Notes: generated by a model not told the origin, from the letters alone. DNA of 64,000 nt from an uncultured Gammaproteobacteria bacterium (GCA_964650355.1 CAZYTL010000001.1:216018-280017), one strand, 5' to 3'. Numbered from the stretch's first letter, positions 21,003 to 54,055 are shown. Program-made: numbers and translations.

Positions 21003-21017
21003 GCATCTTAATCTGGC

Positions 21018-35775: not shown

Positions 35776-36330
35776 TCATGAGAATTTTATTTCAATTAAA
35801 GTAGTTTCGTTCGTCTTCTTCAATACTTGAACGGTAAACTGGCGATCACTATTTGCGATGTCAATCATTATTTGCGTGTGGTCGTTGGTTGTTGTTTTGA
35901 CAAAATTTTTGACTTGAAAATCTTCCTGTTTAAGCATTTGCTTATACCAGTCACCTACAGTATCAATGTTTGAATTAACCTCATAGGATTGAGAATCTGC
36001 TGTCTGGCTTAATAATCTAGCTCCGGGATAAATCAAACCCAGCCACTCGTTAGTCTCAGTGTCCTGATCATCTTCCATCGTTGAAGAATTTGTCGGTTCA
36101 GGAGTTAAGGTAGATAATGGTGTGGTGGTCGCTATCGGAGTAGCTGATGGTGTAGGGGAAGAAATTAATTTTTCTTCTGGCGCTACCGTCTCCGCTCCAG
36201 CCACCGCAGATTCAATTTTGTTTTGACTGATAACCGTTGATGCTCCCGGCTGGTCTTTAGCGATTCTGATCTGCACCACCGAATAGAAGAACATCACCGT
36301 AGCTGCTATGGCGATCAATGCTTGAATCAT
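35776..36330 (-). CDS. membrane-anchored hypothetical protein with Pro/Thr-rich linker
   Basis: 184 aa. N-terminal TM, SPTPSATPIATTTPLSTLTPEPT linker, small C-terminal domain. Confidence 0.4.
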   Translation of the reverse strand: MIQALIAIAATVMFFYSVVQIRIAKDQPGASTVISQNKIESAVAGAETVAPEEKLISSPTPSATPIATTTPLSTLTPEPTNSSTMEDDQDTETNEWLGLIYPGARLLSQTADSQSYEVNSNIDTVGDWYKQMLKQEDFQVKNFVKTTTNDHTQIMIDIANSDRQFTVQVLKKTNETTLIEIKFS

Positions 36331-36435
36331 ACCAGGTCAAATCTTCACTTATTGATATTAAAAATGATGCGCATTCGAAGCCTGCAATAACTATATACAC
36401 CTTTTAATCATAAAAGGCAAAAGAGACAAACCTCT

Positions 36436-37044
36436 TTACTTCTTATTTATTAACTCCGCCGTCACCAGTAGCCTTTTCCATGTAGTTCCTGGTGGCCAAC
36501 AAGTTTGCATAGTCAATGTGGATTTGGCTATCTGCGGTTGTAATCGGCCTGTATCAGTACTGGAAACCACCTCTTTATTTATAATCTGATAGAAATATTC
36601 CTTTCCTTGATAAATTATCAACACCTGATCTCCGGTCTCCAGCTTATTAAGTAAATAGAATTCTGCATTGTAGCGACTGATGCGCCAGGGAGCATCTGTG
36701 GAATGGGCGAATAAAAATACGTTACCCGGTTCTCCAGGTAATGAGGTATTTGAGGCATGAGCCACTCCGCGTTCTAAAGCCGGCAAGTAAATCTCAGGTC
36801 TAAACGGATCTACGTTTTTGATCACCTCAGCATCGACCTTAATTTTAGGGATTATGACTCGAAACTGATCGGCAGATGCATCTGTAAGAGAAACGTCTAC
36901 CTGATTATTATCTTCCACCAACTGCCACCAGTAATATTCGATTTCTTTGATCAAAGCAGGCCCCCAAGGTAGGATCAACACCATCACTCCTGCCACAGTC
37001 AATCCGTTTCCAATCCACAAAAAGAGCTTCCTTTTCATCACCAT
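36436..37044 (-). CDS. sortase (transpeptidase)
   Basis: 202 aa. N-terminal TM. Catalytic His in FLFAHS, TLTMQTC active-site Cys motif (TLxTC), downstream conserved Arg (KRLLVTA). Confidence 0.8.
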   Translation of the reverse strand: MVMKRKLFLWIGNGLTVAGVMVLILPWGPALIKEIEYYWWQLVEDNNQVDVSLTDASADQFRVIIPKIKVDAEVIKNVDPFRPEIYLPALERGVAHASNTSLPGEPGNVFLFAHSTDAPWRISRYNAEFYLLNKLETGDQVLIIYQGKEYFYQIINKEVVSSTDTGRLQPQIAKSTLTMQTCWPPGTTWKRLLVTAELINKK

Positions 37045-37085: not shown

Positions 37086-38783
37086 TTAATCCAGGTTGTA
37101 AATCTCAAAGGCCGGCTGCCCGTCAGGAATCTTAATTGTTTCCTCATGATTAATGGTCCAGATCTTGTATTCCGGATTTTGTTCTAAATAACTGGTAGGA
37201 AATACTAACCAATCAATTGGCTGTTTATTTAGAAAAGCAGTTAAGTCATCTACTGATTTTGGCCAACCGAAAAACAGCCGTTCATCTGTTTGGTAAAAAG
37301 TGGAATTTCCAGTTTTAATTTCCATCGGTTCGCTTAAGTCTTCCGAATCAGTAATCTTAGATTGCCAAAATCTGAAATAACTACGAGGATAATATCCTGA
37401 CCAAATCACCAGCATTGATTGGTTGATCTTATCCTGTTGAAATTCAGCCAGCTCCTTAAACCCTGATTCAAAGCTTCTGGCAGCCAAAGTAGGGAACACA
37501 TGAAAATACCCGAAAAGAAAGTAATAGAAAGAATATGCACCAACGCCTAGAACAAATAACCAATATCCGAATTTGAAATACTGATTACGAATTACCTGCC
37601 CTGAACCTTGTCGTAATCCTGTTATCCGATTACTCAACTCGACAATTCCGATTGCCGTTAAGATGGTCAAAAACGGCATCATGGTAATCGCTCTTAATAA
37701 ATAGCCGGCCCCATCATTCGTCAACGCTGCCGGAATGGGTGAGGCTAAAATCCACACTCCAAATAGTTGTTTGGTCTGGTCATTGTTTCGTTGTTTCATA
37801 AATACGTAAGCTCCATAAACCATAAAAGGCAGTAAAAAAGGGTAAAATTCGCCTACCATATTGGTTGAATGCCTTAAAATCGGATCGCCTTTTAAGAATA
37901 ACCATTCTGGGGTGAAAAAGGACAAATAGTTTTCTGTAAATTGGGCCACTACCGCAACAGGGAAATTGTAAAAAAGGCGATTAATTAATTCCGGATCCCG
38001 ATTCAGGGAAAATATTGTTGGAGAAGAGTCTCTGGCAATTCCTCGATACAAATCAGTTTCTGCTGTCACGTTCACATCTCGCCAGATAGCCAAATCCAGA
38101 CCCCGTGCTTGAGGCGATAGCCCCTTATAGCGGGTCATTAAAATCATTAATCCGATTAGAGCTACTGCTCCTCCTCCGGCGATCAATTTCCATCTCTGTA
38201 CCTGATTCCTGACCTTGGCTTGTTGATAAAAAACCAATCCTAAGATAAAAGGTAGCATCACAATTATGGACGAGTAAACATAAGCCGCTGCCATTAAGGG
38301 CAAGAATGACCACCACAATTTTCCCCGTAAATACAAACCTGCATATAAACAAACCAACATTAATAAAATCGGGATATGGGTATGACCGATTCGACTAATC
38401 ATAAATGACCAGGGAAGCACTGCGGTTAATCCGGCTGCTATTAGGGAGATTCGCCAGCGACTTTGTTTATCACCTTTCATTCCATTAGCCAGAAAGAAGA
38501 CTCCCAGCGGCAGTAAACTGCCGTAAATTGCCGCTGGAAGACGTACTGCCAGTGTGGTCTTACCCAAAAACCAGGTAAATGTAAATATCCGGTTGTAGAC
38601 ACTGGTCAACAGGTTACCCACTGATAACGGATGACTGTTCAGCCATTGAAGTAGATAAACCTGACCGGCCTCATCTGCATAAAGAGGTGGAATATTTAAA
38701 TTAAGACGATAGAGTCTGATTGCTAGTGATAAAATAATCACTGCCCCCAGAATTAGCGTTGTTCGAGATCGTGTCAATTTCAT
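37086..38783 (-). CDS. ArnT/PMT-family GT-C membrane glycosyltransferase candidate
   Basis: 565 aa, polytopic. N-terminal RLYRLNLNIPPLYADEAGQVY loop (DE-containing first extracytoplasmic loop). Confidence 0.55.
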   Translation of the reverse strand: MKLTRSRTTLILGAVIILSLAIRLYRLNLNIPPLYADEAGQVYLLQWLNSHPLSVGNLLTSVYNRIFTFTWFLGKTTLAVRLPAAIYGSLLPLGVFFLANGMKGDKQSRWRISLIAAGLTAVLPWSFMISRIGHTHIPILLMLVCLYAGLYLRGKLWWSFLPLMAAAYVYSSIIVMLPFILGLVFYQQAKVRNQVQRWKLIAGGGAVALIGLMILMTRYKGLSPQARGLDLAIWRDVNVTAETDLYRGIARDSSPTIFSLNRDPELINRLFYNFPVAVVAQFTENYLSFFTPEWLFLKGDPILRHSTNMVGEFYPFLLPFMVYGAYVFMKQRNNDQTKQLFGVWILASPIPAALTNDGAGYLLRAITMMPFLTILTAIGIVELSNRITGLRQGSGQVIRNQYFKFGYWLFVLGVGAYSFYYFLFGYFHVFPTLAARSFESGFKELAEFQQDKINQSMLVIWSGYYPRSYFRFWQSKITDSEDLSEPMEIKTGNSTFYQTDERLFFGWPKSVDDLTAFLNKQPIDWLVFPTSYLEQNPEYKIWTINHEETIKIPDGQPAFEIYNLD

Positions 38784-38797
38784 ATCTGGATAAACGT

Positions 38798-40240
38798 CTA
38801 TTCAACAAATTGTCTTGTGCTGAGGGGAATTCTTTGCTTTCCTTCCGGTCTGGGTTGATCAGGAAAATCTTCATAATAAACTTGAATGGTTGGATTTTGA
38901 TAGATTACACGAAACATATCCGCATAAGAAATCGCTTGGGCTATCTGTTTAGAAGATCCCCAAGATTGGCCAAAATCGTCAGTATCATTTACAAATTCAA
39001 AATAAGATCCGGCCGGATATTGAGGATAATTTGTCTGCAAAAAATTAGCCACCTTTTGGCTGACTTTTGCCCGATTTACTGAGTAGTGATGTGTGTAAGT
39101 CAAATAATTCATCGACAAGTTTAATCCCAACCAGCTAACTACAAATATTCTACTCCACATCCCCGGACGGTTGTTTTTCCCCATCACTAACCAAGCCAAC
39201 CCTAAACTAAACCCTACCATCGGCAGAGTTAGTTCCAGAGTAAACTTATGCCAGGGCAACCAGAGCACCGGCAACAGACATACCACAAACCATCCTAATG
39301 CCAACCCGCCCATCTTCAATAATTGTCGCTTCTCCTTTGCCTTAGACAAATAATTTAAGCCCAGTCCTGCCAGTAACACTATTGTGGCTCCTACCGATCC
39401 TAGCATCCACCAGGACCACTTTCCAAAGTCGCTCCAAAACTTGGGGATAATCCGTAAACCACTGCCCACGTAATCCACTAAAAATTCAGGAGCGCCTAAT
39501 GCCCATAAACCATACCAAAACAAAGTGTTCAAGTTTTTCTTTAAAGAAAAACTTCCCACATAACTGTCTCCTTCTAAGGGCTTAAAGATCACCAATCTTA
39601 GATACCCATACCCGATTGCTACCAAAAAAAAGGGAAGATAACTTTGAAACCTAAATCGGTGTCTATACCAATCAATACCGACTAAGAGAACGGGCAGAAC
39701 TATGGCTGTTTCCTTGGATAATAGGGCTAAAATGAAAAAAAATATTGTTCGCAATAAATTTCCCTTCAGATGGCTTAAAACTGCTAATAAAATGAACATG
39801 GTCATCAGCAATTCCTGAAAAGTGGATAAAAAATAAAGCTTAGTAAAATTCGTCACCGAGAAACCATAGAAACATGTTACCCAGAAGGCAACATGTTTAT
39901 TAGTCAATAACTCAATAATCCAATAAACTAACAACAGGGTATATCCAAAAACAAACAAGGATATTAAATGACCGGGGATTGGGTTTAATCCAGATAGTTG
40001 ATAGCCCAGCCAAAAGAACACCTGGGTAGATAACGGTCGATAAAAACTAATCGATTGGGGAGTGGGGGAGAAAGAAAAGAAATTGAGAAACTCATTAACA
40101 TTGGAAATTTGCACCACCCGCAGGTGAAACCAATCATCAGCAGAAAAAAAATTTCCCAGCGAAGGCAAATACACGGCCATTGCCCCGGCTATAATCAATA
40201 ACAGCCTCCAACTAACAATTAGATTTTGTTTTTTCTCCAT
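38798..40240 (-). CDS. polytopic membrane protein, GT-C-like
   Basis: 480 aa, 11 or more TM. N-terminal FSADDWFHL loop. Short soluble C-terminal domain. Confidence 0.45.
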   Translation of the reverse strand: MEKKQNLIVSWRLLLIIAGAMAVYLPSLGNFFSADDWFHLRVVQISNVNEFLNFFSFSPTPQSISFYRPLSTQVFFWLGYQLSGLNPIPGHLISLFVFGYTLLLVYWIIELLTNKHVAFWVTCFYGFSVTNFTKLYFLSTFQELLMTMFILLAVLSHLKGNLLRTIFFFILALLSKETAIVLPVLLVGIDWYRHRFRFQSYLPFFLVAIGYGYLRLVIFKPLEGDSYVGSFSLKKNLNTLFWYGLWALGAPEFLVDYVGSGLRIIPKFWSDFGKWSWWMLGSVGATIVLLAGLGLNYLSKAKEKRQLLKMGGLALGWFVVCLLPVLWLPWHKFTLELTLPMVGFSLGLAWLVMGKNNRPGMWSRIFVVSWLGLNLSMNYLTYTHHYSVNRAKVSQKVANFLQTNYPQYPAGSYFEFVNDTDDFGQSWGSSKQIAQAISYADMFRVIYQNPTIQVYYEDFPDQPRPEGKQRIPLSTRQFVE

Positions 40241-40293: not shown

Positions 40294-41370
40294 CTACCGA
40301 CTTCGTTTCCTTATTTTCTGCAAAAAACTCTTTATTGATTTTAATTCGGGACTATAGATTGTAAGCATATAACGCACCGCCCCTATAAAGACAAAAATAT
40401 AGCCCCAGGCAGCGATTTTCTCTGCCGTCTCAATTTGACGAATCATGAACAGTATCGGGTAGGAAATAATAAAACATAATGAGAATAAGAATATCTCAGA
40501 GTGGTTAACCTTGTACAAATAAATGGCGACAGCACTGAGTAAGGTGATCAGTAAAGTTAAGCTATCACTGGATTCTTTAATGAAAAAAACATCTAGTATC
40601 ATCAACCCCAATATTATTGAAGGAAGCCAAGCAGTTATCAGCAATTTTTTGACATACAAATTCTTATTTGGTATGGGGAGTGAATAACGCCTCGATATTA
40701 AGATAAAAATTAAAAAGTAAACGATTAGAGGAATGAATAATGTCCAGAGATAGATCAGAAACCCATGATCAACCAACAAGTTGATTAGTTTGTTAAAACT
40801 AAATTTAAGTAAGAACAGCAAAGAAGAAGAAAGCGCCTCCTTATCCACTAGATATCTAGTGGTAATTTGCGGTGGATATCTGCTAATAGCCACGGCATCC
40901 GCTGGTCCGCCATTTTGGGATTCAATCTCGATTTCATAACTTTTCCCCTTGGCATCTTTTACCACTGGAAACACAAAAGGAAAAAGTTGATCAGACTTGA
41001 AATTAGACGCCTGATAACTATTTTCGTAAAACCATCCGGGTTGATCTTTTTCCTTGATTCTAAACGCCACAGTATCATTGCTCTGACGATCGAAAGTATA
41101 AAATCGCACGAATATCGCGTCCAAATTGTTGTCAACAGCAGTGATCTCTCGATAAAATTTCATTCCGGCATATATTTTCTTGTTCGTAGCGATTAAATCA
41201 ACAGTGGATTGTAGTGAGGTATAATTGAGCCAACCCACCTGGTCGCCTACATAATTAAAAATGCCCACGGCAATAAAACTTACATAAATCAGGGGCAGAA
41301 TCACCCAAAGGATGAGATTAACTGATTTGTTTTTATAAATGAGGGCTAACAATCTGGGTAACTTAATCAT
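40294..41370 (-). CDS. membrane protein, partner of the YfhO-like gene at 41389 (module copy B)
   Basis: 358 aa. N-terminal TM, ~180-aa extracytoplasmic domain (FVRFYTFDRQSNDTVAFRIKEKDQPGWFYENSY), C-terminal 4-5 TM bundle. Paralog of the gene at 43854..44879. Confidence 0.45.
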   Translation of the reverse strand: MIKLPRLLALIYKNKSVNLILWVILPLIYVSFIAVGIFNYVGDQVGWLNYTSLQSTVDLIATNKKIYAGMKFYREITAVDNNLDAIFVRFYTFDRQSNDTVAFRIKEKDQPGWFYENSYQASNFKSDQLFPFVFPVVKDAKGKSYEIEIESQNGGPADAVAISRYPPQITTRYLVDKEALSSSLLFLLKFSFNKLINLLVDHGFLIYLWTLFIPLIVYFLIFILISRRYSLPIPNKNLYVKKLLITAWLPSIILGLMILDVFFIKESSDSLTLLITLLSAVAIYLYKVNHSEIFLFSLCFIISYPILFMIRQIETAEKIAAWGYIFVFIGAVRYMLTIYSPELKSIKSFLQKIRKRSR

Positions 41371-41388
41371 AATTAATCATCGCTGATA

Positions 41389-43839
41389 TTATTTGGCTGT
41401 AAATTTAGGATAAACCAATACGTAGAAAATACTCATAGTCAAGGCAATGAGAGCGATCATCAAACCAACATAAAATAACCTCTGAGGCCAAAACTCTATT
41501 ATGAGTTCAAAATCGTAACTCCCGGTTTCATTACTCACGCATAAACTCAGATTCTGGCTACATAACTTTACTGGATCCACTATCCAGCTATTGGCATAAC
41601 TGTTTACCTTTTGGTGAGCGGCTTCATCCAGTGAGTGCTTAAACCAAGTCTCCGAAAAATTATCCCGCGCCAATTGTTCTCCTGAAATAGTTCCGGATTC
41701 AAGCAGTTTTCTTTCTTCTTGGCTCATGGACGCTAAATACGCCTTCCATTGGGGATGATAATTTTCTGAAAAGATGAGGGGAAATTCATCTTTTGCTCCC
41801 GTCACCAGCAGGCGATACTTTACCGGGCTTATTTGCTTCACCGTCAAAGTGGGTAAAGACATATTTTCAACCCGTTCATTCTGGTTACTCTCGAAATAAA
41901 CCGCTGACTTGATATCAAAATCCTTTTCCGACACTAAATCACCAATGTCCTCTTCTGAACGAGTGGTATAAATCATCCTGTCAGCCGCATATATTCTGGG
42001 TAAAAACAACTCATCAGCTAGTTGGTATGTCTTGGTGTGTTTACCATCGATCAATTGAGTTAATTGACTTTCACCGTCCACTTCCTGGAAAACAGAAGCA
42101 ATCTTCCAATCGTTTTTACAACTGGAGAAAACCGGATAAATATCATTACGAATTGCGACATATTTACTATTCGTCATCACTGCCAAATTAAGCCAATTCA
42201 GGTCTCTTAAACCACAAAAATGCTCATTAATCAATTTTGCCAAATTAACAGTTTCCTCATTAAAAGTAGGATTCTTAAGATACGAATGCTCTGGTTGCCC
42301 TCCTTGGGCCAAACTTTGATACTCGGTTGGTAAGTAAACCGGGCTATGTAACGCGGGCAAGAATAAAATTCGGTGTGCGATGGGATCACTTTCGCTTAAT
42401 TCGTAAGTAGCCACTAAATCTGGCGGTAATCGATAAAAATCCACATGATCACGTTTTTGTTCTAATAAGGTCTTCTGTCCCAAGTCGCCGCTCAGCCACC
42501 AACCACTTAACCAAATCAAGACCATTACTATCCAACCGGTTAATAAATAAGGTTTGAGTTTCACTAAATCAAGTCTATTTATGTACTTGGCGAAAACTTT
42601 GCCTACCTTATTTTCCGATTTAAGTTTCGCCGTATTCTCTTGTTGAATTAAGTGATAAGCAAAAGCCGCCAGCAAGGGAATAAACAGCGCTGGTACCAGC
42701 ATTAAATGTTGCGGGCTGCGGTAAAGATTCATCAGAGGCACTACGCTAAACCACCACATGGCCACTCCTCCCCAAGGTTGCGTAGCACCTTTGACCACCA
42801 GTAAAGAAACAAAAAAGATTACTAACCATGGCAGCACGGGCTTGAGATTTTTCAGTTTTATGAGCATCAAAACCATTAAACCCAGTCCCAGCGCTGACAC
42901 TGCTACGACCAAAGGTCTGAAAAATTCCGGCAAAGAGTAAAAATATATATTTCTGTTCAAGTAACCACCAAGATTAGTGATATTTAACAATGACTGGGTA
43001 GTACTTTTTACATGAAGAAAATTGTCACTGAAGTTATTATTAAACACTGAACTGCTAAAACCTTTCAAATTGGCGATGAAGGGCAAGACCCAATACAAAT
43101 TTACCGCTAATAAAATCAGATGAGTCATAAAATACCTCAAAAAATAAAGTTTAAGTCTATGGCGTACTCCGGCCTCCCATAGCAAATACAGAAAAATTAA
43201 ACTCTCTATCAACACGAAATTTTGCAGTGAAGAAATCACAAAAATTGAAGCCAATAGCCAATACAGTAACCACTTATTTTTTAGCCCTTCTCTTACTAAC
43301 GTCATTATCCCCATTAACCAAAAAGGAATAGCAGCATAAGAAACCCACATATACCAAGACCCGCCGATAATATCATTAAACAAAAACGGAGAGAGCCCAT
43401 ACAAAACTGCAAACGGCAAGATCCAGTATTTTCCCAACAGCGGATCTTCTTCAGCCTCATTCTTAACAGCGCTCAAGATTTTCTCCGAGGGTCGCATATT
43501 AGCAAGTAAATAGCTGAGTAATTTGCCGAAGCCTACAATTGCCACCAAGACAACCGAAACGATTAACACCTTCACTGCCCATACCGCACCCAATACATGC
43601 CCCAATCCGGCCAGCAAAGCATTAGGCCCCAATTGCGCAATAGTCAAACTTAACGGGGTACCCAAGTCATTATTCCACCACGTAAATGTAGACACCACAG
43701 GGAGTCTATAAAACAAACTGTTTACATATGGAAAGGTAAAGTCCCAATTATGGCCAATCAGATTGGGGTTTATCAATACCCCTCGTAAGCAAACCGTGAC
43801 AAAGAGAACGATTAATCCAGATATTAATACAGTTTTCAT
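41389..43839 (-). CDS. YfhO-like large membrane protein (module copy B)
   Basis: 816 aa. GHNWDFTFPY N-terminal loop, polytopic core, extracytoplasmic C-terminal domain with YHPQWKAY and a final TM. Paralog of the gene at 44876..47287. Confidence 0.5.
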   Translation of the reverse strand: MKTVLISGLIVLFVTVCLRGVLINPNLIGHNWDFTFPYVNSLFYRLPVVSTFTWWNNDLGTPLSLTIAQLGPNALLAGLGHVLGAVWAVKVLIVSVVLVAIVGFGKLLSYLLANMRPSEKILSAVKNEAEEDPLLGKYWILPFAVLYGLSPFLFNDIIGGSWYMWVSYAAIPFWLMGIMTLVREGLKNKWLLYWLLASIFVISSLQNFVLIESLIFLYLLWEAGVRHRLKLYFLRYFMTHLILLAVNLYWVLPFIANLKGFSSSVFNNNFSDNFLHVKSTTQSLLNITNLGGYLNRNIYFYSLPEFFRPLVVAVSALGLGLMVLMLIKLKNLKPVLPWLVIFFVSLLVVKGATQPWGGVAMWWFSVVPLMNLYRSPQHLMLVPALFIPLLAAFAYHLIQQENTAKLKSENKVGKVFAKYINRLDLVKLKPYLLTGWIVMVLIWLSGWWLSGDLGQKTLLEQKRDHVDFYRLPPDLVATYELSESDPIAHRILFLPALHSPVYLPTEYQSLAQGGQPEHSYLKNPTFNEETVNLAKLINEHFCGLRDLNWLNLAVMTNSKYVAIRNDIYPVFSSCKNDWKIASVFQEVDGESQLTQLIDGKHTKTYQLADELFLPRIYAADRMIYTTRSEEDIGDLVSEKDFDIKSAVYFESNQNERVENMSLPTLTVKQISPVKYRLLVTGAKDEFPLIFSENYHPQWKAYLASMSQEERKLLESGTISGEQLARDNFSETWFKHSLDEAAHQKVNSYANSWIVDPVKLCSQNLSLCVSNETGSYDFELIIEFWPQRLFYVGLMIALIALTMSIFYVLVYPKFTAK

Positions 43840-43853
43840 ACCGGTTTATCAAT

Positions 43854-44879
43854 TTAATGATTAACTCGTAGTGCTCGCCAGCTAACTAAAATTTTTATTA
43901 ACCCGATTACCAGCAACAAGTAACTCCAGACGAAAAAATCGTTAGCTACATAGTCAAGGTTCAAAACAAAAAACAACAGATAAAGCAGCATAGCGCAGCC
44001 GCTAACCGCTAATATAAAGTTAGTTTTAACCTTATAAAAAATAATGCTTAATACGACTAAAATTAATAGAGCTGTTAATCTCAGACTATTCTGACTTTTG
44101 ATAACTAATATATCAAGACTGGTAAGCAGCACGGAAATCACTCCTAATAGGGGGTTACGACTTACCAGATTACCTAAACTAATAGATGAAGAAACCACCG
44201 TATTGAAAAAATTATTGTGGCGAAGCTTGACAAAAATTAAAAAGCCCAGATAACAAGCAATTATCAGCACCCTGATGATTATCAGTTTTAATAACCGCGG
44301 AGTTGAAAGAATTTCTGTAACCTTTAGATATAGAAATTTTATCAATTCGGATTTATTTGTTAACAGCTGGCTTAACTGAATTTTATATCTGGCTGAGTAT
44401 TGGGGTCTGACGCTACTAATGGCGATAGCATTACCATCTTGACCTTGAGTAGATTCGATTTGAAAAACATAATTATTTCCCCGCGATGATGTGATTAAGG
44501 GAAAACCGAAAGGAAATAATTCATCTGGTAAAAACTGATCAACTTTATATTTGTTTTCGTAATACCACTGGCTAGCACCTACTTGCTTAATCCTAAAAAT
44601 TAACCAATCATCACTGATCCGGTTAAAGTTATAAAAACGGATTGTGACCAACCCCAAATTATTAAAACCGGCAGTGAATTCATCCGTCACGATATCATTG
44701 GCATGTAATTCTGTTGATGGCTTAACGTTAGAGAAATTATGAAATTCTGCCGCAATTAAAATCCCGCCTTCCGTTTTGAGCTCCTCATATAAATCTGAGC
44801 CCAGATATAAAATTAGGCCAATGGGGATGAGGATCCAAATAACCAAGTTGGTAATTAAAACTGATAGTTTTTTCGTCAT
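43854..44879 (-). CDS. membrane protein, partner paralog (module copy A)
   Basis: 341 aa. TIRFYNFNRISDDWLIFRIKQVGASQWYYENKY aligns with the paralog at 40294..41370. Overlaps the upstream gene by 4 bp. Confidence 0.45.
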   Translation of the reverse strand: MTKKLSVLITNLVIWILIPIGLILYLGSDLYEELKTEGGILIAAEFHNFSNVKPSTELHANDIVTDEFTAGFNNLGLVTIRFYNFNRISDDWLIFRIKQVGASQWYYENKYKVDQFLPDELFPFGFPLITSSRGNNYVFQIESTQGQDGNAIAISSVRPQYSARYKIQLSQLLTNKSELIKFLYLKVTEILSTPRLLKLIIIRVLIIACYLGFLIFVKLRHNNFFNTVVSSSISLGNLVSRNPLLGVISVLLTSLDILVIKSQNSLRLTALLILVVLSIIFYKVKTNFILAVSGCAMLLYLLFFVLNLDYVANDFFVWSYLLLVIGLIKILVSWRALRVNH

Positions 44880-47287
44880 GGAGACTTATTATTCCTTTTA
44901 TTAACCATAAACGCCAGCACTCCTAATAATCCCAAGCCAGATATTATTAGACCGTAATAGAAATATCTTTGCAATTCATATTCCACGATTAACTCAAAAT
45001 CATAACTCTGACCTTGATCGATCAGACAGTCACCTGTTGGTTCGGCACACAAAGTTTGAGGGTCAATTATCCAAGCGTTAGCATAACCATTAGCCCGCAG
45101 ATGATCTTGTTCCCCCATAGTTGGCGTAGCTTTCCAGGTGTCCCAGATATGACCGTCAGTCAAGTTATCATTCTGAACCGTGCCGTAATAATTAGGGGAC
45201 ACGTATTTATCAGAATTCTCGCCCTGATTACCTTTAAGTCTGGCGAGATAAACCTTCCATCTGGGATTAAAGCTTTCAGAAAATACCAAGTGAAAAGGCT
45301 GGCTGGCGGATTTTACCACCAACGTATATTTAGTAGGATTAATCATTTTATATTCCAAAGTCGGACGATTATTGACCTGCTCGTGCTTGTCTTCGCTAGA
45401 GTTTAAATACAATACGCTTCCAACTTGATAATTCTGGTCTGCAAGTAACTGGGGAAGATCGTCAATCCCTAAGGTAGAAGAGTTTATTTGTGAAGGAACA
45501 TAAAATCTGGGAAGGAAATACTGATCATCCAGCTCATAAGTTGCCGTATATTTATCCTTGGTTAACAACCTCAAATGCTGGTTACTATCCACTTCCGCTA
45601 AAACAGACTCATTATTCCAGTGATTAAAACAATCACTGAACTTGGGCAGGATATCCCCTCTGACAGAAACATATTTAACATTCAAAATACTCATGAGATT
45701 TAGCCAGTTCGTCTTGTCCAACCCGCAAAAACTTCGGTTGACAATTTGGCCCATGATGTTCTCCTCTTCCCTAAACGTTCGGTTCTTTAAGTACATATAC
45801 TCTGGTTGACCCCCTTGGGAATAGTCTTGAAAATCAGTCTTTAAATACACAGGACTGTGCACCGCCGGCAAAAACACTATCCGGTGATTAAGTGGGGTGG
45901 TGTCATTTAGTTGGTAAGTTTCTGTGAGCGCCGGAGACAACCGATAAAAATCCAAGTGATCCACGCCTTTAGTTGATAAAATCTTTTGCCCTAAATCTCC
46001 AGTCCACCACCACCCACTAATCCAGACAAAAATCCCCAAAAGCAAGATAAAGTACAATCTGTTTTTATGATATTCCGGTTTAAGAGAGCTGACTGTATAA
46101 ACCAGGCGACTTTTAAGCTTTCTATTTAATGGTTTGACTTTGCCGCTAATGATTGTGTTATAAGCATAAGCGACTAGCAACGGAATTATAAACGCGGGAA
46201 TAAACATTAAATGCTGCGAAACCCGATACAAATTCATGATCTTGAACGAGTTAAAAATCCCCATCGTTAATTCCGGCCAGGGAGGATTACCGCCCTTAGT
46301 GACAATGATTAATAACATTAAGATCAAGGCGAAAACCGGGAAATCTGCCTTTTTACGGACCTTAGTTAGTGCATAGATGATCAACAACCAAACCAAAATA
46401 GTCACCAAAATGAAGAAAATGATCAGGGGATAAGAATAGAGGTTATAGTACAAATTTCTGTCCCAGTAACCGGTTAAATTGAAAATATTCGGAAGGGATT
46501 GAGTGTTATCCTTGGGATTAGCAAATCCTCCGTTGAAACCAACGTCAAGCCCCTGGATAAAGTTGCCAAGAGAAACCATTAAACTTAGTAGCCAATAGGA
46601 GTTTAATACGGTTAAAATGACATGCAAAGTTAAATACCTGCGGCCGAACAGCCAAATTCTTTTCTGAATAACCGACCGGTATATTAAAAAAAGCAGGGTG
46701 ATTGTTTCTACGGCTACAAAGTCTTGCAAAGAGCTGACCACGAAAATTGAAGATAGAACAAAGATCAGTAAATTCCTTTTAGAAAAACCTTGGATCACAA
46801 TCTTTAACTCAGCCAACATAAACCAGGGCGCCAGCGCGTAGGAAATCCACATGTACCATGACCCTCCGACAATTTCAGTGAAGAGAAAAGGAGAAAAGCC
46901 ATACAACAGAGCGAAGCCGATATTTTTATCAGACGGAGAAGTTAGGTAATCTAATAATTTACTAAAAAACAGAGTGGCGAATAAAACTACCACCACAGTT
47001 AATAATTTAGTCGTCCAAATCGGGCCTATTACAGTAGAAACACCTGCCAATAAAGTATTAGGTATCAGGTGCGCGACTGTGAAAAACTGCTCGAACCCCA
47101 AATTACTTGCCCACCAGGTATATAAAGATAAAACTGGCAGTCTGGCAAATAATTCTTTGGGATAGGGAAAAGTGAAATCCCAGTTATGCCCGATTTGAGC
47201 ATCAGCCTGCAAAACTTTCCTGAGAGAAAATAACACCAAAATTATTAATCCCAACCTAACTGCATTTTTTATTTGTCTTCCGTTCAT
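44876..47287 (-). CDS. YfhO-like large membrane protein (module copy A)
   Basis: 803 aa. IGHNWDFTFPY. C-terminal SYDFELIVEY plus a TM, homologous to the gene at 41389..43839. Confidence 0.5.
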   Translation of the reverse strand: MNGRQIKNAVRLGLIILVLFSLRKVLQADAQIGHNWDFTFPYPKELFARLPVLSLYTWWASNLGFEQFFTVAHLIPNTLLAGVSTVIGPIWTTKLLTVVVVLFATLFFSKLLDYLTSPSDKNIGFALLYGFSPFLFTEIVGGSWYMWISYALAPWFMLAELKIVIQGFSKRNLLIFVLSSIFVVSSLQDFVAVETITLLFLIYRSVIQKRIWLFGRRYLTLHVILTVLNSYWLLSLMVSLGNFIQGLDVGFNGGFANPKDNTQSLPNIFNLTGYWDRNLYYNLYSYPLIIFFILVTILVWLLIIYALTKVRKKADFPVFALILMLLIIVTKGGNPPWPELTMGIFNSFKIMNLYRVSQHLMFIPAFIIPLLVAYAYNTIISGKVKPLNRKLKSRLVYTVSSLKPEYHKNRLYFILLLGIFVWISGWWWTGDLGQKILSTKGVDHLDFYRLSPALTETYQLNDTTPLNHRIVFLPAVHSPVYLKTDFQDYSQGGQPEYMYLKNRTFREEENIMGQIVNRSFCGLDKTNWLNLMSILNVKYVSVRGDILPKFSDCFNHWNNESVLAEVDSNQHLRLLTKDKYTATYELDDQYFLPRFYVPSQINSSTLGIDDLPQLLADQNYQVGSVLYLNSSEDKHEQVNNRPTLEYKMINPTKYTLVVKSASQPFHLVFSESFNPRWKVYLARLKGNQGENSDKYVSPNYYGTVQNDNLTDGHIWDTWKATPTMGEQDHLRANGYANAWIIDPQTLCAEPTGDCLIDQGQSYDFELIVEYELQRYFYYGLIISGLGLLGVLAFMVNKRNNKSP

Positions 47288-47315: not shown

Positions 47316-48320
47316 TCATGATTGATTATCAAACCGCCTTAAAAACAACACCTTGGTTAGTCCTGAGAATGTACCCAGAAGACCGCCTAATTGATTTAAC
47401 CTCCCTGTAGTTAAAAATTTATACCCGTAATAACCATTTTGAAGACAGAGATTAGTCGAAAACTTTAGCAATTGGTTCAGGCTTTTTATTTTAAAGAACC
47501 TGAAGTAGAAAATAATAAAATTTTGCATTCGGTGGTAAGCAGCAGGTCTGGCTTTTTCAACCTTACCTGTTTCCACGTTGTGTCTTAATTTCACCTGCGG
47601 GTTAAATATTAGTTTGTATCCCAAATTCTTAATTTTCATTGCAGAATCAGTTTCGTGATAGTCTCCCAGTCCTTCAGTAAAAATTTCATCAAAACCACCG
47701 ATTTGTTTCACTAATCTCGTTCGGGCAGACCAATTACATGCTTCTAAGTAATCCGCTTGCCGATTATGCTTTAGCTTTAAAGTTTCAGGATAATTAGAAC
47801 CTAAAGTAAATACCCCGCTGGACAAAAACTTTGAAGGCTCTTTAATTTTTCCCTCATAGAGAAAATCGAGGTAGACTCTACCAAATAATTTTTTTACCGG
47901 GTTGGTACTGTGTTGAATACCTTCTAAAAAATTGGTTAAATCCCGTGCCTGCATGCCTTTCTCACTGATGGTCGTTGGCCCAGTCACCCCTCCGATATTT
48001 TTATCTGATTTGAAAGTCTTAATTAAGTTCTTATACCAGTCTTTATCCAATACCACGTCATCGTCCAGCCGGACAAAAATTTCGTTCTCTGCTCTTTTCA
48101 AAGCCTCATTGGCTGCCCCGATAATCCCTTTCTTTTTTTGTATAAAATAATCAATTTTTAAATCCCTGAATCTGCTGAGCATTCGCCTTACCTGATCATC
48201 ATCCTTTATACCCACTAACAGAATTCGGAACCCCTTTTTTGACTGTTTATTTAAACTTTCTAAACATTGCTTTAGAGCATCAAACCTGTTTGAAGTGGGA
48301 ATGAAAATATCTGTATCCAT
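47316..48320 (-). CDS. glycosyltransferase family 2
   Basis: N-terminal GT-A fold pattern (FIPTSNRFDALKQCLESL). DxD-like VRLDDDVVLDKDW. Confidence 0.7.
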   Translation of the reverse strand: MDTDIFIPTSNRFDALKQCLESLNKQSKKGFRILLVGIKDDDQVRRMLSRFRDLKIDYFIQKKKGIIGAANEALKRAENEIFVRLDDDVVLDKDWYKNLIKTFKSDKNIGGVTGPTTISEKGMQARDLTNFLEGIQHSTNPVKKLFGRVYLDFLYEGKIKEPSKFLSSGVFTLGSNYPETLKLKHNRQADYLEACNWSARTRLVKQIGGFDEIFTEGLGDYHETDSAMKIKNLGYKLIFNPQVKLRHNVETGKVEKARPAAYHRMQNFIIFYFRFFKIKSLNQLLKFSTNLCLQNGYYGYKFLTTGRLNQLGGLLGTFSGLTKVLFLRRFDNQS

Positions 48321-48428: not shown

Positions 48429-49172
48429 TTAGGCCTTCTTCTTTAAACACAAAAAAATTGTGCCTCTGGCCAGTAAACCTGGGAAGAAATTAGTTAACTT
48501 ATACCAGATAGGATCAGGGATCAGAGTTAGAATTTTCCCTACCCATTCTAAACGAGAACCTTTCCCTGAAAAATTAATATAATATCGGTAATCTTTAATC
48601 GTCAAGTATTTACTCACAAAATCTCTTGCTTGCTTAATCGTGGGAAAATGTAAATGCTTATATAAGTCAAACGCATATTGGTCAATACCCATCCCTGTCA
48701 CGGCAAAGACCCGGTGGAAAATAGTATTTTCGTTGGGCAAAGAGATCAACGCGACCCCGTCTGTTTTTAATAAATTATTGATAGCTTGAATGTGTTTAGC
48801 CGGATCCAATAGATGTTCCAAAACTTCCGTGCAGATAATAATATCGAATTTTTCCCCTTTAACCTGAGATTCGATATCTTGAAAATTGAAATCCATCGTC
48901 TTCACCTTTATTCCCCGTTCTTTGGCCGCATCCATTCCGTCGTTATCGTAATCCAGAATCAGATAATTAATTTTCTGAGTCTTCGTTGGGAATGACTGTT
49001 TGATTAATTGAAACAGATCTCCGGTATAGCCGCCGATATCGAGCACGTCCACATGATCTGATGAGAGGATCTTGGGTTTAATTAAATCTAAATTTTGCCC
49101 ATACCTCATCCGCATGTATTTACTCGTAAACAAATCACCGTAATGATATTTAGCCTGGTAACCTTTAGTCAT
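48429..49172 (-). CDS. class I SAM-dependent methyltransferase
   Basis: VLDIGGYTGD motif I. IICTEVLEHLLDP post-II motif. Confidence 0.7.
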   Translation of the reverse strand: MTKGYQAKYHYGDLFTSKYMRMRYGQNLDLIKPKILSSDHVDVLDIGGYTGDLFQLIKQSFPTKTQKINYLILDYDNDGMDAAKERGIKVKTMDFNFQDIESQVKGEKFDIIICTEVLEHLLDPAKHIQAINNLLKTDGVALISLPNENTIFHRVFAVTGMGIDQYAFDLYKHLHFPTIKQARDFVSKYLTIKDYRYYINFSGKGSRLEWVGKILTLIPDPIWYKLTNFFPGLLARGTIFLCLKKKA

Positions 49173-49176: not shown

Positions 49177-49986
49177 TTATATTTTTTTACACAATACTAA
49201 TAAACCTGCTCCTTGATCATTATTAACGTTATCAGATACGCTTAATTTGGCGATTAATTCTTTATACTTTAAAAAGACTTTTTTTTCAGCCTCCTGATCA
49301 AATAATTTTTTCCAGCGCGCTTCCAGAGCCATTCTATCCCACCACATCAGGGCTTCTTTATCCAGGTAATAATGATATTTGATAATTTTAAGTTTTTTTG
49401 AACTCAGCAACTGCTTCCATTTTTGAATCGAATAAAGATGATAATGATTTAACTTCCGATTTCTGTAGTTAACGTACAGGTTTGATAAAAAGCCCAGTTT
49501 CCAGCTATCTAGCAGATTGCTCAAATATAAGTATTGGGAAAACTTATCGCTGGGCACAGTAAACAGAAAATAACCGTTAGGCTTTAATACTCTCCGCACT
49601 TCACTTAACACCTGGTTCAAGTCAGGGATGTGCTCTATGACACTGTTGCTAAACACAAAATTAACTGAATTTTGGGGAAGGGACATCTTTTCAGCCAATT
49701 CAATTAACACCTTCTTGTAGCGTTTTTTCTTAATTGCCACTTGTACGTCTCCAGCCTCATTATTATCTAAACCGTAAGTAAATTGTTGATCAAATAAAGT
49801 ACTGGCGATAAACCCATCACCGCAGCCTAAATCCAACGATGGCTGGGGAAAGTTAATTCGATGAGTACATTTATATATAGTATTTAGCTCTATGATTCTA
49901 AATAATTTGGACGCCGGATTTTGCTCCTCATCTAAATCATCCAGATCAATTTTATGGCTGTGCATCATATTACCCAATTCAAACAA
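49177..49986 (-). CDS. class I SAM-dependent methyltransferase
   Basis: LDLGCGDGF motif I. VFSNSVIEHIPD...LKPNGYFLF. Confidence 0.7.
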   Translation of the reverse strand: MFELGNMMHSHKIDLDDLDEEQNPASKLFRIIELNTIYKCTHRINFPQPSLDLGCGDGFIASTLFDQQFTYGLDNNEAGDVQVAIKKKRYKKVLIELAEKMSLPQNSVNFVFSNSVIEHIPDLNQVLSEVRRVLKPNGYFLFTVPSDKFSQYLYLSNLLDSWKLGFLSNLYVNYRNRKLNHYHLYSIQKWKQLLSSKKLKIIKYHYYLDKEALMWWDRMALEARWKKLFDQEAEKKVFLKYKELIAKLSVSDNVNNDQGAGLLVLCKKI

Positions 49987-50095: not shown

Positions 50096-51211
50096 CTAAA
50101 AACTCTTGGCATTGCCGATGTTAAGTTGAGTTTGGGCTTTACTTAAAAAATAACTCAAGGGTTTTTTAACCATCACCCGGTCAAATAACCAGTCATCATT
50201 TACCTTTCTTAATTTACTGACGGCTTGTCTTTTCCTGATGGTTGATCTGAGATGAACCACATTCCATAAAATGCCTTTATTGATCCACCAAAATTCCTGA
50301 TAATTTCCCTGTACCAACTTGTACCAAGCTAAGCCAGACCACAAGATTACCTGCCAAGTGAGAATCTTAATTAAATTCTTTGTTTGTAAATTTTTTAAAT
50401 GGGTTAATAAGTAATTTTTTGTTCCGTGAAATTTGGCTTGATAACTTTTTTTCTCCTGACCCAAACTCAAAGTGCTGGTCCCGAATTCATGATAAACCTT
50501 GGACTGAGGAACAAATCTCACCTGGTATCCTGCCAGCCAGCACCGCCAGCCCAAATCAGTTTCTTCCACGTAGATAAAATAATCACCATCAAAACCTCCA
50601 GCCTTATCAAATACTTTTCTGCTGATAAACATCCCGGCTGATTTAGCTGCCAAAATCTCTATTGGTTGGTCATACTGGCCATGATCGATTTCCCCGGCTT
50701 GACATCTTTGCACGAGGAAACCATTTTGTCCTAAATGCTCGCCCACATAGTCTATCAAAAACTGTTTCTTCTTAGTCCGTCCTTTCAAATAGGCTACCGC
50801 CTCCGCTTGCTTCGATACCAACAACTTACACTGAATCGCCCCTAAATTCTTATCTTTCTTAAATGCTTTAACCGCTTCATTGGCCCAATTCGGATCCACC
50901 ACCGTGTCATTATCCAAAAATCCCAGATATTGGCCTTGGGAACTTTTTACCCCTATATTCCGGGCCATGGCCGGTCCGTAATTTTTATCCAGTCCGATAC
51001 ATAAAAATTTTCCCTTCTGCTTTGCAGCCGCATATTTGTGATTTAAATACGCCACTGTCCCGTCAGTTGATCCATTATCCACCACCACTACTTCAACTGA
51101 CTTTGTCCGACTTTGGAGCACGGACTCCACACACTTATCCGCATAATTTTTGCCTTCATACGTAACAATGATCACCGAAACCAAAAACGATTTTTCCATT
51201 ATTTTCTCCAA
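50096..51211 (-). CDS. glycosyltransferase family 2
   Basis: VSVIIVTYEG...VVVVDNGSTDGT GT2 signature. DNDT(V) DxD variant. Confidence 0.8.
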   Translation of the reverse strand: MEKIMEKSFLVSVIIVTYEGKNYADKCVESVLQSRTKSVEVVVVDNGSTDGTVAYLNHKYAAAKQKGKFLCIGLDKNYGPAMARNIGVKSSQGQYLGFLDNDTVVDPNWANEAVKAFKKDKNLGAIQCKLLVSKQAEAVAYLKGRTKKKQFLIDYVGEHLGQNGFLVQRCQAGEIDHGQYDQPIEILAAKSAGMFISRKVFDKAGGFDGDYFIYVEETDLGWRCWLAGYQVRFVPQSKVYHEFGTSTLSLGQEKKSYQAKFHGTKNYLLTHLKNLQTKNLIKILTWQVILWSGLAWYKLVQGNYQEFWWINKGILWNVVHLRSTIRKRQAVSKLRKVNDDWLFDRVMVKKPLSYFLSKAQTQLNIGNAKSF

Positions 51212-51228: not shown

Positions 51229-52170
51229 CTAGGTTTGCTCTTTCAGATATAAGATCGTCTTTTGAATCCCCTCCTTAATCGGAGTTAATCTATCAGGATA
51301 ATACTTTTTTAATAATCTAGTATCGGCTAATGTCTTTTCCAGATAGACTTTTGGTTTATTCACGTACACAGGACGCACCTTCTTAGGAAGTTGTTGATTT
51401 ACCAGCTTCACTATTTGGTTGAAAGATACTGCGGTTCCGGATCCCACATTAACCACCTTTTCCTTACAGTTCCAGGCCAATTGCAACATAATATTTATCA
51501 AGTCATCTATGAACACAAAATCTCTCTCTTGATTGCCATCTCCCCAGATTTCCGGACTTTTTCCCCTCATCATGTCTTTGATAAAAGCATAAAGCACGCT
51601 GGCAATCTTTCCCTTATGCTCTTCTCCTGGACCATATCCGGCAAAGATCCTTAAGCCGAGTGAGTTTACTTGATCACCATAAACTTCGGCAATATTTTCT
51701 AAAATTATTTTACATTGAGAATAAGCATTTACCTTACTGAAGTTAATTTTGGTCCGTTCATTTTGAGGCGGGGGAGTTTGAGCATACAAACTCCCGGTAG
51801 AGGGAAAAACCAACCGCACATTATTGGTTGCGCAAAACTTTATAGATTGTAAAAACCCTCTAATCGTAATTTGAGCGCAGCTGGAGAGATCTTGGTTGAA
51901 CAGAATCACAGAAGATGGGGCGGCGAAGTGAAAAAGAAAATCATACTTCACCTTTGGCAATTTTTTAAATGTAGCTTCTGATTGAACATCTCCGATAATC
52001 GTGTGCGCCTTGGGATGAATATTTTTCTGTTGAGCGCCAAAGGATAAATTGTCGATCACATACACCCTAGCCTGTCTGTTAACTAGCTCGCGTACCAAGT
52101 TCTGGCCGATAAAACCGGCTCCACCTGTCACAATGCAATTTTTTTTATAATAAGGATTTTGTTTAGCCAT
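51229..52170 (-). CDS. NAD-dependent epimerase/dehydratase (extended SDR)
   Basis: CIVTGGAGFIGQNLV Rossmann motif. YAQCK (YxxxK) catalytic pair. Confidence 0.8.
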   Translation of the reverse strand: MAKQNPYYKKNCIVTGGAGFIGQNLVRELVNRQARVYVIDNLSFGAQQKNIHPKAHTIIGDVQSEATFKKLPKVKYDFLFHFAAPSSVILFNQDLSSCAQITIRGFLQSIKFCATNNVRLVFPSTGSLYAQTPPPQNERTKINFSKVNAYSQCKIILENIAEVYGDQVNSLGLRIFAGYGPGEEHKGKIASVLYAFIKDMMRGKSPEIWGDGNQERDFVFIDDLINIMLQLAWNCKEKVVNVGSGTAVSFNQIVKLVNQQLPKKVRPVYVNKPKVYLEKTLADTRLLKKYYPDRLTPIKEGIQKTILYLKEQT

Positions 52171-53314: not shown

Positions 53315-54055
53315 TCACCACTTAGTGATTTTACCTACCTTTTTCACAATTTTGTCCATGCTCTCTAATAAAGATTCTACTGATGGATCGATCGTCAAAT
53401 CTGGATTTTGGGGTACTTGATACGGGTTATTTTTGCTCAAATTACCTCCACGGACGTAAATCCAGTAGGGATCACAAATTTCAGCAATTTTATCTCTCGC
53501 ATCTTGAAACGGAGCAATTACTGAGACAAGTACATTATGCCCCTGATCACACAATACTTTGGCTAACCTGGCTACCCGCAAATTGTGTACTTCGCGATCT
53601 TTTTTACTAAATCCGGCTCCTAAGGAGATTGACTGACGCATTTCATCTCCGTCTAAGAGAATCCCATTTAACCGTTCCTTGAGCAACACGGCCAAAGAAG
53701 TTTTTCCCGCCCCAGTATTACCTGTAAACCAAATCACCCTTTTTTGTGAATTTCGGATCTTAGTTCCTGATATTTTTTCCATTTCCTCATTTAACCTGAT
53801 ATTGCGAATCGCATATCCCACTTTGCGACCATAACAGACTTCGGCCACATCCGGCACCACAATAATTTTTACTTTCTTGCCGTAAACCTTGCGAATCATC
53901 TGTTTTCGTTCTTCAACCGTGTAAGGATTCTCTTCAGAGATTACCGTATCTCGGATAGCAATCACCACCGGTTTACCCTCAGCCAAAACCTTATCAATCA
54001 TTAACTTGTGGCCTTTATGGAACGGTTGCCAACGACCAATAAATAAAGAATGCAT
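53315..54055 (-). CDS. fusion protein: minimal HxGH nucleotidyltransferase (NMNAT/TagD-like) N-domain plus APS-kinase-like P-loop kinase C-domain
   Basis: N-domain has FIGRWQPFHKGH (HxGH) and a C-terminal ISGTKIR motif. C-domain has the FTGNTGAGKTS P-loop and LDGDEMRQSISLGAGFSKKDREVHNLRVARLA, which matches the APS kinase LDGDxxRxxLxxxLGFSxxDRxxNxRR signature. Confidence 0.6.
   Translation of the reverse strand: MHSLFIGRWQPFHKGHKLMIDKVLAEGKPVVIAIRDTVISEENPYTVEERKQMIRKVYGKKVKIIVVPDVAEVCYGRKVGYAIRNIRLNEEMEKISGTKIRNSQKRVIWFTGNTGAGKTSLAVLLKERLNGILLDGDEMRQSISLGAGFSKKDREVHNLRVARLAKVLCDQGHNVLVSVIAPFQDARDKIAEICDPYWIYVRGGNLSKNNPYQVPQNPDLTIDPSVESLLESMDKIVKKVGKITKW

Follow-up and report, generated by a model that had tools for sequence, protein, structure and literature searches.

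Paired genes for predicted GT-C glycosyltransferases and smaller membrane partner proteins form a conserved double module in a putative surface-glycan operon

Gene arrangement of the double module

The stretch of DNA analyzed here, termed the window in the following, comprises 64,000 nucleotides assigned to an uncultured Gammaproteobacteria bacterium (GCA_964650355.1, CAZYTL010000001.1:216018-280017). It features two consecutive gene pairs, each encoding a large membrane protein with a predicted GT-C glycosyltransferase fold (LargeA and LargeB) and a smaller membrane protein (PartnerA and PartnerB; Table 1). A sequence-only reading had described these genes as a tandemly duplicated two-gene module, and all four open reading frames (ORFs) are indeed found on the minus strand exactly where it had placed them. 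LargeA and LargeB share 40-41% identity from end to end (810 columns, 600 bits, E=0) and are paralogs as proposed; the same applies to PartnerA and PartnerB (26-27% identity over 324 aa, E=1e-35). Judged by these alignments, both paralogies are far above chance level. The predicted gene junctions are also correct: pair A overlaps by 4 bp (...CCATGACG..., with stop and start codons sharing ATGA) and in pair B exactly 18 nt lie between TAA and ATG. With regard to the motifs said to be shared by the large proteins, most can be located: IGHNWDFTFPY occurs in both and SYDFELI(V/I)E(Y/F) is present, but YHPxWKAY is exact in copy B only and is replaced by FNPRWKVY in copy A (LargeA).

The divergence of the two modules had been considered ancient. 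This is borne out, because only codon-level direct repeats of 21-37 nt are left between them at a spacing of about 3.5 kb, pointing at an old duplication. A recent en-bloc duplication was rejected, as there is no DNA-level repeat and LargeB and PartnerB are each closer to proteins from another organism than to those of module A. Intergenic gaps amount to 14-53 nt along the run GT2-LargeA-PartnerA-LargeB-PartnerB-480-aa-565-aa, in which GT2 denotes a family 2 glycosyltransferase gene and the last two genes are named after the size of their products. This spacing fits a single transcription unit; scans for consensus promoters and terminators remained at background level and did not define the ends of the operon. 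Locus L050 from a second organism contains position-by-position orthologs of LargeA (46% identity, a C-terminal fragment), PartnerA (36%), LargeB (51%, P0025), PartnerB (41%, P0002, directly following the LargeB ortholog) and the 480-aa protein (52%). The order large-partner-480-aa homolog-565-aa homolog is furthermore kept in L036 and L049. By these comparisons, the double module is an ancient, maintained arrangement inside a conserved cassette.

Table 1. Genes and features in the window (CBM, carbohydrate-binding module; pLDDT, predicted local distance difference test; SAM, S-adenosylmethionine; TM, transmembrane segment)
Feature	Position	Strand	Description
LargeA	44876..47287	-	803 aa; predicted GT-C-fold membrane glycosyltransferase, AftD-like structure, remote YfhO homolog
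LargeA codons G33-H34-N35-W36-D37	47177..47191	-	near-invariant loop after TM1, putative catalytic Asp37
PartnerA	43854..44879	-	341 aa; ORF; AlphaFold2 model with pLDDT 84.5
PartnerA ectodomain, residues 42-166	44382..44756	-	CBM-like beta-jelly-roll, most conserved part of the family
LargeB	41389..43839	-	816 aa; LargeA paralog; large-family profile E 1.2e-289
LargeB G-H-N-W-D loop, residues 29-33	43741..43755	-	
PartnerB	40294..41370	-	358 aa; PartnerA paralog; partner-family profile E 6e-114
PartnerB ectodomain, residues roughly 50-174	about 40849..41223	-	
GT2 glycosyltransferase (GT-A fold)	47316..48320	-	28 nt upstream of LargeA; Pfam Glycos_transf_2 E 7.5e-18
480-aa polytopic membrane protein	38798..40240	-	about 8 TM; 'SADDWFH' after TM1
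565-aa polytopic membrane protein	37086..38783	-	'YADEAG' after TM1; next conserved cassette member
SAM methyltransferases	48429..49172, 49177..49986	-	Pfam
Second GT2	50096..51211	-	Pfam
NAD-dependent sugar epimerase/dehydratase	51229..52170	-	Pfam
Genuine YfhO	22232..24640	+	PF09586 69.4 bits, E 3e-19
530-aa 9-TM protein	24621..26213	+	overlaps YfhO by 20 nt; no family match; 'THDQARD' after TM1

The large proteins form a family between YfhO and AftD

The predicted model of LargeA consists of about 11 TM helices, an alpha/beta periplasmic domain, a single beta-sandwich region (residues 624-770, approximately) and one terminal TM (772-796), and thus agrees with the GT-C core fold, i.e. 7-13 TM plus an extracytoplasmic domain. 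The first extracytoplasmic loop after TM1 contains the acidic residue typical of GT-C enzymes, D37, right after model helix 2-27. G33, H34, N35, W36 and D37 are each kept in at least 90% of the 41 large-family members in our alignment, and many other extracytoplasmic polar residues are near-invariant as well. An Asp in the equivalent position after TM1 is catalytic or essential in GT-C enzymes (D41 in AftD, D31 in GT136), and by analogy Asp37 is the putative catalytic residue of LargeA.

The sequence-only reading had regarded the large proteins as YfhO-like. Neither LargeA nor LargeB is matched by PF09586 (YfhO; gathering threshold 28.5 bits) even at E<=1, and none of the 41 aligned family members is, so that membership in canonical YfhO was rejected for all 41. 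When family alignments are compared (hhalign), the large family and YfhO are related with 99.5% probability (E 1.6e-22, 657 columns, 16% identity) over positions 8-784 and 10-790, respectively, that is over their full length and with the same architecture of N-terminal polytopic domain, C-terminal ectodomain and terminal TM. A YfhO hidden Markov model tuned to the Candidate Phyla Radiation (CPR) detects LargeA (7.9e-10) and LargeB (2.1e-9), mainly via the C-terminal ectodomain. PF11847 (GT-C_AftD/DUF3367; gathering threshold 26 bits) does not match LargeA or LargeB; it yields sub-threshold matches in 9 of the 41 family members (best for P0071 with 25.1 bits) and is present in a more distant large-like protein of L054. 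The NCBIfam model for MmpA matches LargeA weakly (E 4e-5, 22 bits at a cut-off of 210), and a search of the large-family profile against PDB sequences returned nothing meaningful. What stands of the YfhO assignment is a remote full-length homology with the same architecture; the lack of PF09586 matches, the low identity and a sub-threshold Pfam signal of the AftD type speak against the assignment itself. As far as profile comparisons can tell, the relationship to YfhO is real but remote and confined to the superfamily level, and the large proteins are best described as an uncurated family lying between YfhO and AftD.

A gene on the plus strand of the window had been listed as a third YfhO-like paralog. 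It encodes a genuine YfhO (Table 1), but BLASTP links it to LargeA only with E=0.003 over about 150 C-terminal residues. It was rejected as a member of the same family and is instead a remote superfamily relative of LargeA.

Some large-family homologs feature additional domains. In P0034, P0041 and P0057 a GT2 domain is fused to the N-terminus within one polypeptide, a counterpart to the position of the GT2 gene ahead of LargeA. Nine homologs of 1128-1246 aa (P0046, P0049, P0051, P0052, P0061, P0063, P0065, P0069 and P0072) carry an insert of about 370 aa in the C-terminal ectodomain, near residue 630-640 of LargeA, that is recognized by no model. The most distant clear member found, P0084 (29% identity), is encoded on a 3.25-Mb contig (L048) next to an integrase/transposase gene and genes for a DUF2079 protein, a GT2 and methyltransferases, without a partner. 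Since this genome is probably not of CPR origin, the large family, though not the partner family, may extend beyond Patescibacteria.

The partner family combines a beta-jelly-roll with a helix bundle

PartnerA and PartnerB have no match in Pfam, NCBIfam or PDB sequences. An exhaustive profile search showed that they belong to a family of 2125 clusters at 50% identity (E<=1e-3; 697 clusters at E<=1e-30) with a median length of 349 aa. The AlphaFold2 model of PartnerA starts with a TM helix (2-36), continues with a beta-sandwich (42-166) and a long helix region (176-220) and ends, after a low-confidence loop (224-241), with four further helices (243-340), residues 176-340 making up a C-terminal helical TM bundle. 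A layout of single TM, ectodomain and C-terminal helix bundle had been read from the sequence before, and the model agrees with it. A topology with the N-terminus inside, the sandwich outside and the C-terminus inside would fit the positive-inside rule.

The predicted ectodomain conforms to the beta-jelly-roll/beta-sandwich fold of CBMs and is the part that is best conserved, with a mean top-residue frequency of 0.56 over 139 partner sequences vs about 0.33 for the TM bundle. D91, S143 and G146 are invariant, and G76, F82, F95, W105, F124, G125, F126 and S132 reach top-residue frequencies of at least 0.96. The poorly conserved bundle is not matched by the GtrA family model in Pfam, which describes a 3-4 TM core, even at E<=1. 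The possibility that the partner arose from the large protein, by splitting or duplication of a part of it, was rejected (hhalign probability 0.9%).

Some relatives deviate from the common layout. Seven long-form partners of 580-715 aa bear an additional polytopic domain, which approaches Alg9/GT22 in L045 (23.7 vs 23.8 bits) and L042 (18.8 bits), near or below threshold, and has no match in the other five; profile searches with the long forms and with the whole family against PDB sequences gave nothing meaningful. Other partners carry extra C-terminal IPT/TIG domains, which are typical of surface proteins. Stand-alone genes for proteins of about 112 aa that include a conserved AE..A.Y.Y motif are located after a second large-like gene in L046 (12738-13076) and L047 (12646-12981), in the latter case directly before a GT2 gene. 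As these match the C-terminal bundle of the partners only (E 8e-13 and 1e-9), the sequences suggest that partners are built from two separable modules.

Linkage of both families in other genomes

In order to survey the gene neighborhood, 40 partner-encoding loci were collected from genome and metagenome collections and supplemented by exact look-up, resulting in 41 non-redundant partner genes. The named sources are Amesbacteria, Levyibacteria, Shapirobacteria and 'Patescibacteria group', plus two short contigs with proteobacterial bin labels, and the partner family is essentially confined to Patescibacteria. A large-family ORF directly abuts the partner gene in 17 of the 41 cases. In 15 of these it ends immediately upstream on the same strand, usually with an overlap, and in two it is found immediately downstream; in another five cases it resides 0.5-7 kb away. 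These large neighbors all score with the large-family profile. A LARGE-PART-LARGE-PART layout is repeated in L030, and several copies occur in L027, L032 and L034. Canonical YfhO is encoded in none of the partner loci and nowhere within 10 kb of any partner gene. The suggested co-location with YfhO homologs is therefore valid for the large family, i.e. for remote YfhO homologs, but never for canonical YfhO. Where the large family is absent, partner genes neighbor other types of GT-C enzymes, namely PMT_2 (L013, L015, L025), DUF2079 (L016) and GtrII (L045).

P0045 (1076 aa) is a fusion in which TM1, sandwich and TM2 of a partner (residues 15-256) are joined to a complete large-family body (243-1065). 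Its predicted topology is consistent with both parts and would hold the sandwich in place next to TM1 and the loop that contains the Asp of the enzyme.

Single-pass proteins with a TM and a beta-rich ectodomain are encoded directly after the large-family gene in L046 (8933-10408) and L047 (9399-10433). These proteins share homology with one another (E 6e-16) but have no relationship to the partner family, and they give a faint hint of a galactose-binding domain (E 0.098). Possibly, they are functional analogs of the partner ectodomain.

Proposed function and alternative explanations

Starting from the established features, that is gene structure, paralogy, folds, remote homology, conserved synteny and one fusion protein, we infer a catalytic residue, a lipid-linked donor, a physical interaction of both proteins and carbohydrate binding by the partner. 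In the explanation that we favor, and that we hold to be about as likely as not, an AftD/YfhO-like GT-C enzyme is assisted by an accessory protein that binds the acceptor and is provided in trans. The segment would be central to an operon for a glycan or glycoconjugate of the cell surface, in a bacterium of the Patescibacteria type. Cytoplasmic enzymes, candidates being the GT2 proteins, the two methyltransferases and the epimerase, would prepare a lipid-linked sugar. On the basis of the fold and of the adjacent or fused GT2 proteins, a polyprenyl-phosphate-linked donor is most likely for LargeA and LargeB, and the adjacent GT2 is a candidate for the enzyme forming it. LargeA and LargeB would then move the sugar to a surface polymer or protein on the extracytoplasmic side, making use of the Asp in the GHNWD loop. 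The partner would be non-catalytic. Its membrane-anchored, CBM-like jelly-roll could bind the acceptor glycan or position it beside the GT-C active site, and its helix bundle could dock it in the membrane next to the enzyme. Each enzyme would be translationally coupled to its own partner. Given that both modules are old and have been kept as distinct paralogs, the sugars that they add or the acceptor sites on which they act presumably differ. A wider role of the partner family, as a dedicated trans-acting subunit that can be combined not only with this family but also with PMT_2-like, GtrII-like and GT22-like GT-C glycosyltransferases, is conceivable, even though we consider it doubtful.

Several observations weigh against the proposed enzyme-accessory pair. 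The large protein already bears a beta-sandwich of its own. The jelly-roll matches of the partner are generic (Foldseek E ~1e-4, with viral capsid jelly-rolls next to CBMs), and its ectodomain does not match any CBM sequence family in Pfam, NCBIfam or PDB sequences. On the donor side, the GT2 next to LargeA has no predicted TM segment and only generic NCBIfam matches, none of them specific to a polyprenyl-phosphate glycosyltransferase model, and no GtrA-type flippase was recognized in the window, where the small ORFs at 14431..16238 were judged by eye and not scanned with Pfam. No large-family gene was detected in the fetched locus of 19 of the 41 partner genes. When loci were retrieved the other way round, from eight large-family proteins, a complete partner was present in only two (L049, L050), a bundle-like piece alone in three (L046, L047 and, weakly, L052) and no partner piece in the remaining three (L048, L053, L054). 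A mirror-tree analysis of 12 adjacent pairs revealed no signal of co-evolution (Mantel r = -0.02, p = 0.52). Identity is higher among partners (21-55%) than among the accompanying enzymes (14-41%), although the order is reversed within the window (enzymes 41%, partners only 26%); a generic role would agree with this stronger conservation more readily than a role in determining specificity. Because the partner is missing or incomplete in most of these eight loci, lacks a mirror-tree signal and is the more conserved of the two, it behaves as an optional, rather generic accessory and not as an obligatory, specificity-matched subunit.

The incomplete linkage in both directions, the lack of a co-evolution signal, the stronger conservation and the IPT/TIG domains of some partners could also be explained if the partner acted independently of the enzyme in the same pathway, as an envelope protein with a part in glycan holding, chain-length control, export or anchoring, for instance, or as a receptor-like surface protein, and were found next to GT-C genes only through shared surface-glycan operons. 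We consider this unlikely, since the genes adjoin closely and in a preferred order, P0045 provides a Rosetta-stone fusion, the neighbors are still GT-C enzymes where the large family is absent and the double module is kept gene for gene at 36-52% identity. If, on the other hand, the bundle rather than the ectodomain were the core of the partner, it might handle the lipid-linked donor, either as a flippase in the role of GtrA/GtcA or as a GacJ-like activator or anchor of the soluble GT2. The poor conservation of the bundle and its loss in the P0045 fusion render this improbable.

The identity of the enzyme can be questioned as well. That the large proteins are literal YfhO-type enzymes glycosylating teichoic-acid-like polymers, as in Firmicutes, would agree with the full-length remote homology, the shared architecture and the scores of around 1e-9 with the CPR-tuned YfhO profile. 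However, PF09586 scores are absent throughout the family, identity is low, the sub-threshold Pfam signal is of the AftD type, CsbB/GtcA companions were not identified in the window and the window encodes a separate true YfhO that has no partner, in line with the distance kept between canonical YfhO and partner genes elsewhere. We regard this explanation as highly improbable and as largely refuted at the family level. Equally little probability is assigned to the large proteins being non-catalytic, AftD-like scaffolds comparable to MmpA of Corynebacterineae, a protein of lipid transport that is homologous to the N-terminal 668 residues of AftD. The MmpA match of LargeA that hints in this direction is far under threshold, the GHNWD Asp and extracytoplasmic polar residues are near-invariant, GT2, methyltransferase and sugar-nucleotide genes abound in the neighborhood, and fusions with GT2 exist.

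Comparison with known systems

In its architecture, LargeA matches the GT-C super-domain plus TM12 of the mycobacterial arabinofuranosyltransferase AftD (PF11847, PDB 6W98/6WBX) and could be called a mini-AftD, but it shares only 13% identity with AftD, and the family remains below the Pfam threshold. AftD is about 1400 aa in size. The solved chain (6wbx_A) comprises 1264 residues, compared to 803-816 aa for the large proteins. AftD possesses three CBMs and a beta-sandwich, TM12 and a four-helix bundle (TM13-16) that binds acyl carrier protein, whereas the large proteins have one beta-sandwich and lack the three CBMs, the TM13-16 bundle and any sign of acyl carrier protein binding. In AftD the CBMs are part of the same chain, while in the present case it is the separate partner gene that provides a CBM-like domain and a helix bundle. 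The searches that we ran detected no similarity between partner and AftD. An acceptor-binding CBM acts in cis not only in AftD but also in EmbC and in GT136 ORF12 from Citrobacter youngae. EmbA/B/C and GT136 ORF12 resemble the arrangement proposed here in combining an extracytoplasmic GT-C enzyme with an acceptor-binding beta-sandwich CBM, yet they carry the CBM inside the enzyme. Here, it would reside on a separate polytopic membrane protein, P0045 being the sole known version in cis. GT136 ORF12 does not require its CBM in vitro, a parallel to the partner being optional here.

YfhO of the three-component CsbB-GtcA-YfhO systems that glycosylate lipoteichoic and wall teichoic acids in Firmicutes resembles the large proteins in size, architecture and the presence of an adjacent or fused GT2. 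These systems rely on a membrane-anchored CsbB-type GT2 and a GtcA/GtrA flippase, neither of which was identified near the large proteins, and no partner of the present kind has been described for them, just as the sequence-only reading had stated. BcsB is a membrane-anchored carbohydrate-binding subunit of a glycosyltransferase, too, but its catalytic counterpart, the cellulose synthase BcsA, is a processive GT2 synthase and not a GT-C enzyme, and BcsB is much larger than the partner, has a single C-terminal TM and shows no sequence relationship. Known small polytopic membrane proteins encoded together with GT-A and GT-C genes are similar in size to the partner bundle and its 112-aa versions. 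They have no sequence match to the partner, in which the conserved part is extracytoplasmic and the bundle only weakly conserved.

GT-C enzymes make or decorate most bacterial surface glycans, and the way in which they recognize polymeric acceptors is only partly understood. A separate acceptor-binding protein for GT-C systems has been speculated on, not shown. A testable two-protein candidate is now at hand in two uncurated families, one of them comprising thousands of members, which recur as coupled genes and are once found fused. If the wider role of the partner family considered above is true, this would be the first acceptor-recognizing CBM of a GT-C enzyme in the form of a separately encoded, membrane-docked protein, and enzyme and partner would rebuild the layout of AftD (GT-C super-domain, CBM and separate helix bundle) in two polypeptides. 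The two families also open a first functional route into the envelope glycobiology of Patescibacteria/CPR, a poorly known field in bacteria whose episymbiotic lifestyle is mediated by their surfaces. In an incomplete collection of full-text literature, we found no paper on GT-C glycosyltransferases of Patescibacteria or on YfhO in the CPR. The genomic part of our analysis is solid, the mechanism is a proposal and the partner is not obligatory. Both families merit annotation, and the label 'YfhO' should be avoided for these enzymes.

Neighboring genes in the window

The GT2 upstream of LargeA probably performs a cytoplasmic step feeding the GT-C enzymes, and a GT2 gene likewise precedes the fusion protein in L049. 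For the 480-aa protein, orthologs sharing 49-53% identity occupy the equivalent place behind the partner in L036, L049 and L050. Judging from its layout and a weak NCBIfam match to a 'cell surface glycopolymer formation protein' family, it is probably another GT-C-like enzyme. Orthologs of the 565-aa protein (42-45% identity) occur in the same order in L036 and L049, and it has no match in Pfam or NCBIfam. Together with LargeA and LargeB, the products of 37086..40240, whose motifs after TM1 (Table 1) are acidic, make four putative GT-C-like enzymes in a row, none of which is matched by Pfam.

The mixture of GT2, methyltransferase and epimerase genes on the other side of the module also flanks homologous modules in L004, L046, L047, L049, L053 and L054. 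In L047 (GT2-large fusion) and L049 (partner-large fusion), the modules are preceded by genes of a dTDP-sugar pathway (nucleotidyltransferase, 4,6-dehydratase/epimerase, DegT-type aminotransferase and FdtA-like isomerase). Therefore, a 3-amino-3,6-dideoxyhexose is a possible transferred sugar in these organisms; the window contains methyltransferases and one epimerase instead. A 246-aa protein (53315..54055, minus strand) combines a nucleotidyltransferase-like segment (residues 1-60) with an adenylyl-sulfate kinase domain (residues ~100-194, E 3e-23), and its location beside the glycan operon may point at sulfated or otherwise modified sugars. Downstream of the 565-aa gene, at 35776..37044 on the minus strand, a sortase gene (Pfam E 7e-21) precedes one for a 184-aa protein that is anchored by an N-terminal TM and has a linker rich in Ser, Thr and Pro (SSPTPSATPIATTTPLSTLTPEPTNSS). 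Ser/Thr-rich regions are reportedly glycosylated in streptococci, and by analogy the 184-aa protein is a possible acceptor candidate for O-glycosylation by the neighboring GT-C enzymes.

The true YfhO belongs to a plus-strand cluster (16290..26213) that also encodes a Wzx-like flippase, a 1064-aa membrane protein and a PIG-V-like GT-C protein. Among the 120 homologs listed for this YfhO, all except five carry PF09586. The 530-aa protein encoded next to it was rejected as a partner analog because of its nine predicted TM; it may be another GT-C-like enzyme. The gene for the Wzx-like flippase is located four genes upstream of yfhO and 24 kb from the modules. Three homologs of the window YfhO with 1176-1397 aa (P0344, P0345 and P0346) consist of a Wzx-type flippase (PF01943/PF13440) fused to a YfhO domain. 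Following the Rosetta-stone principle, these fusions hint that Wzx-type flippases, not GtrA, may serve YfhO-type enzymes in some lineages. Four consecutive small membrane proteins of 116-158 aa are encoded at 14431..16238 on the plus strand; they share a similar layout of hydrophobic N-terminus, conserved 'L.AGG(D/N)' motif and second TM and by eye look like a pilin-like paralogous set.

The G+C content is 0.40-0.44 in the first 10 kb, 0.43-0.48 over most of the region from 10 to 34 kb and 0.31-0.42 from 34 to 64 kb. The latter part, which harbors the modules and the glycan genes, could be a compositionally distinct and possibly exchangeable surface-glycan region.

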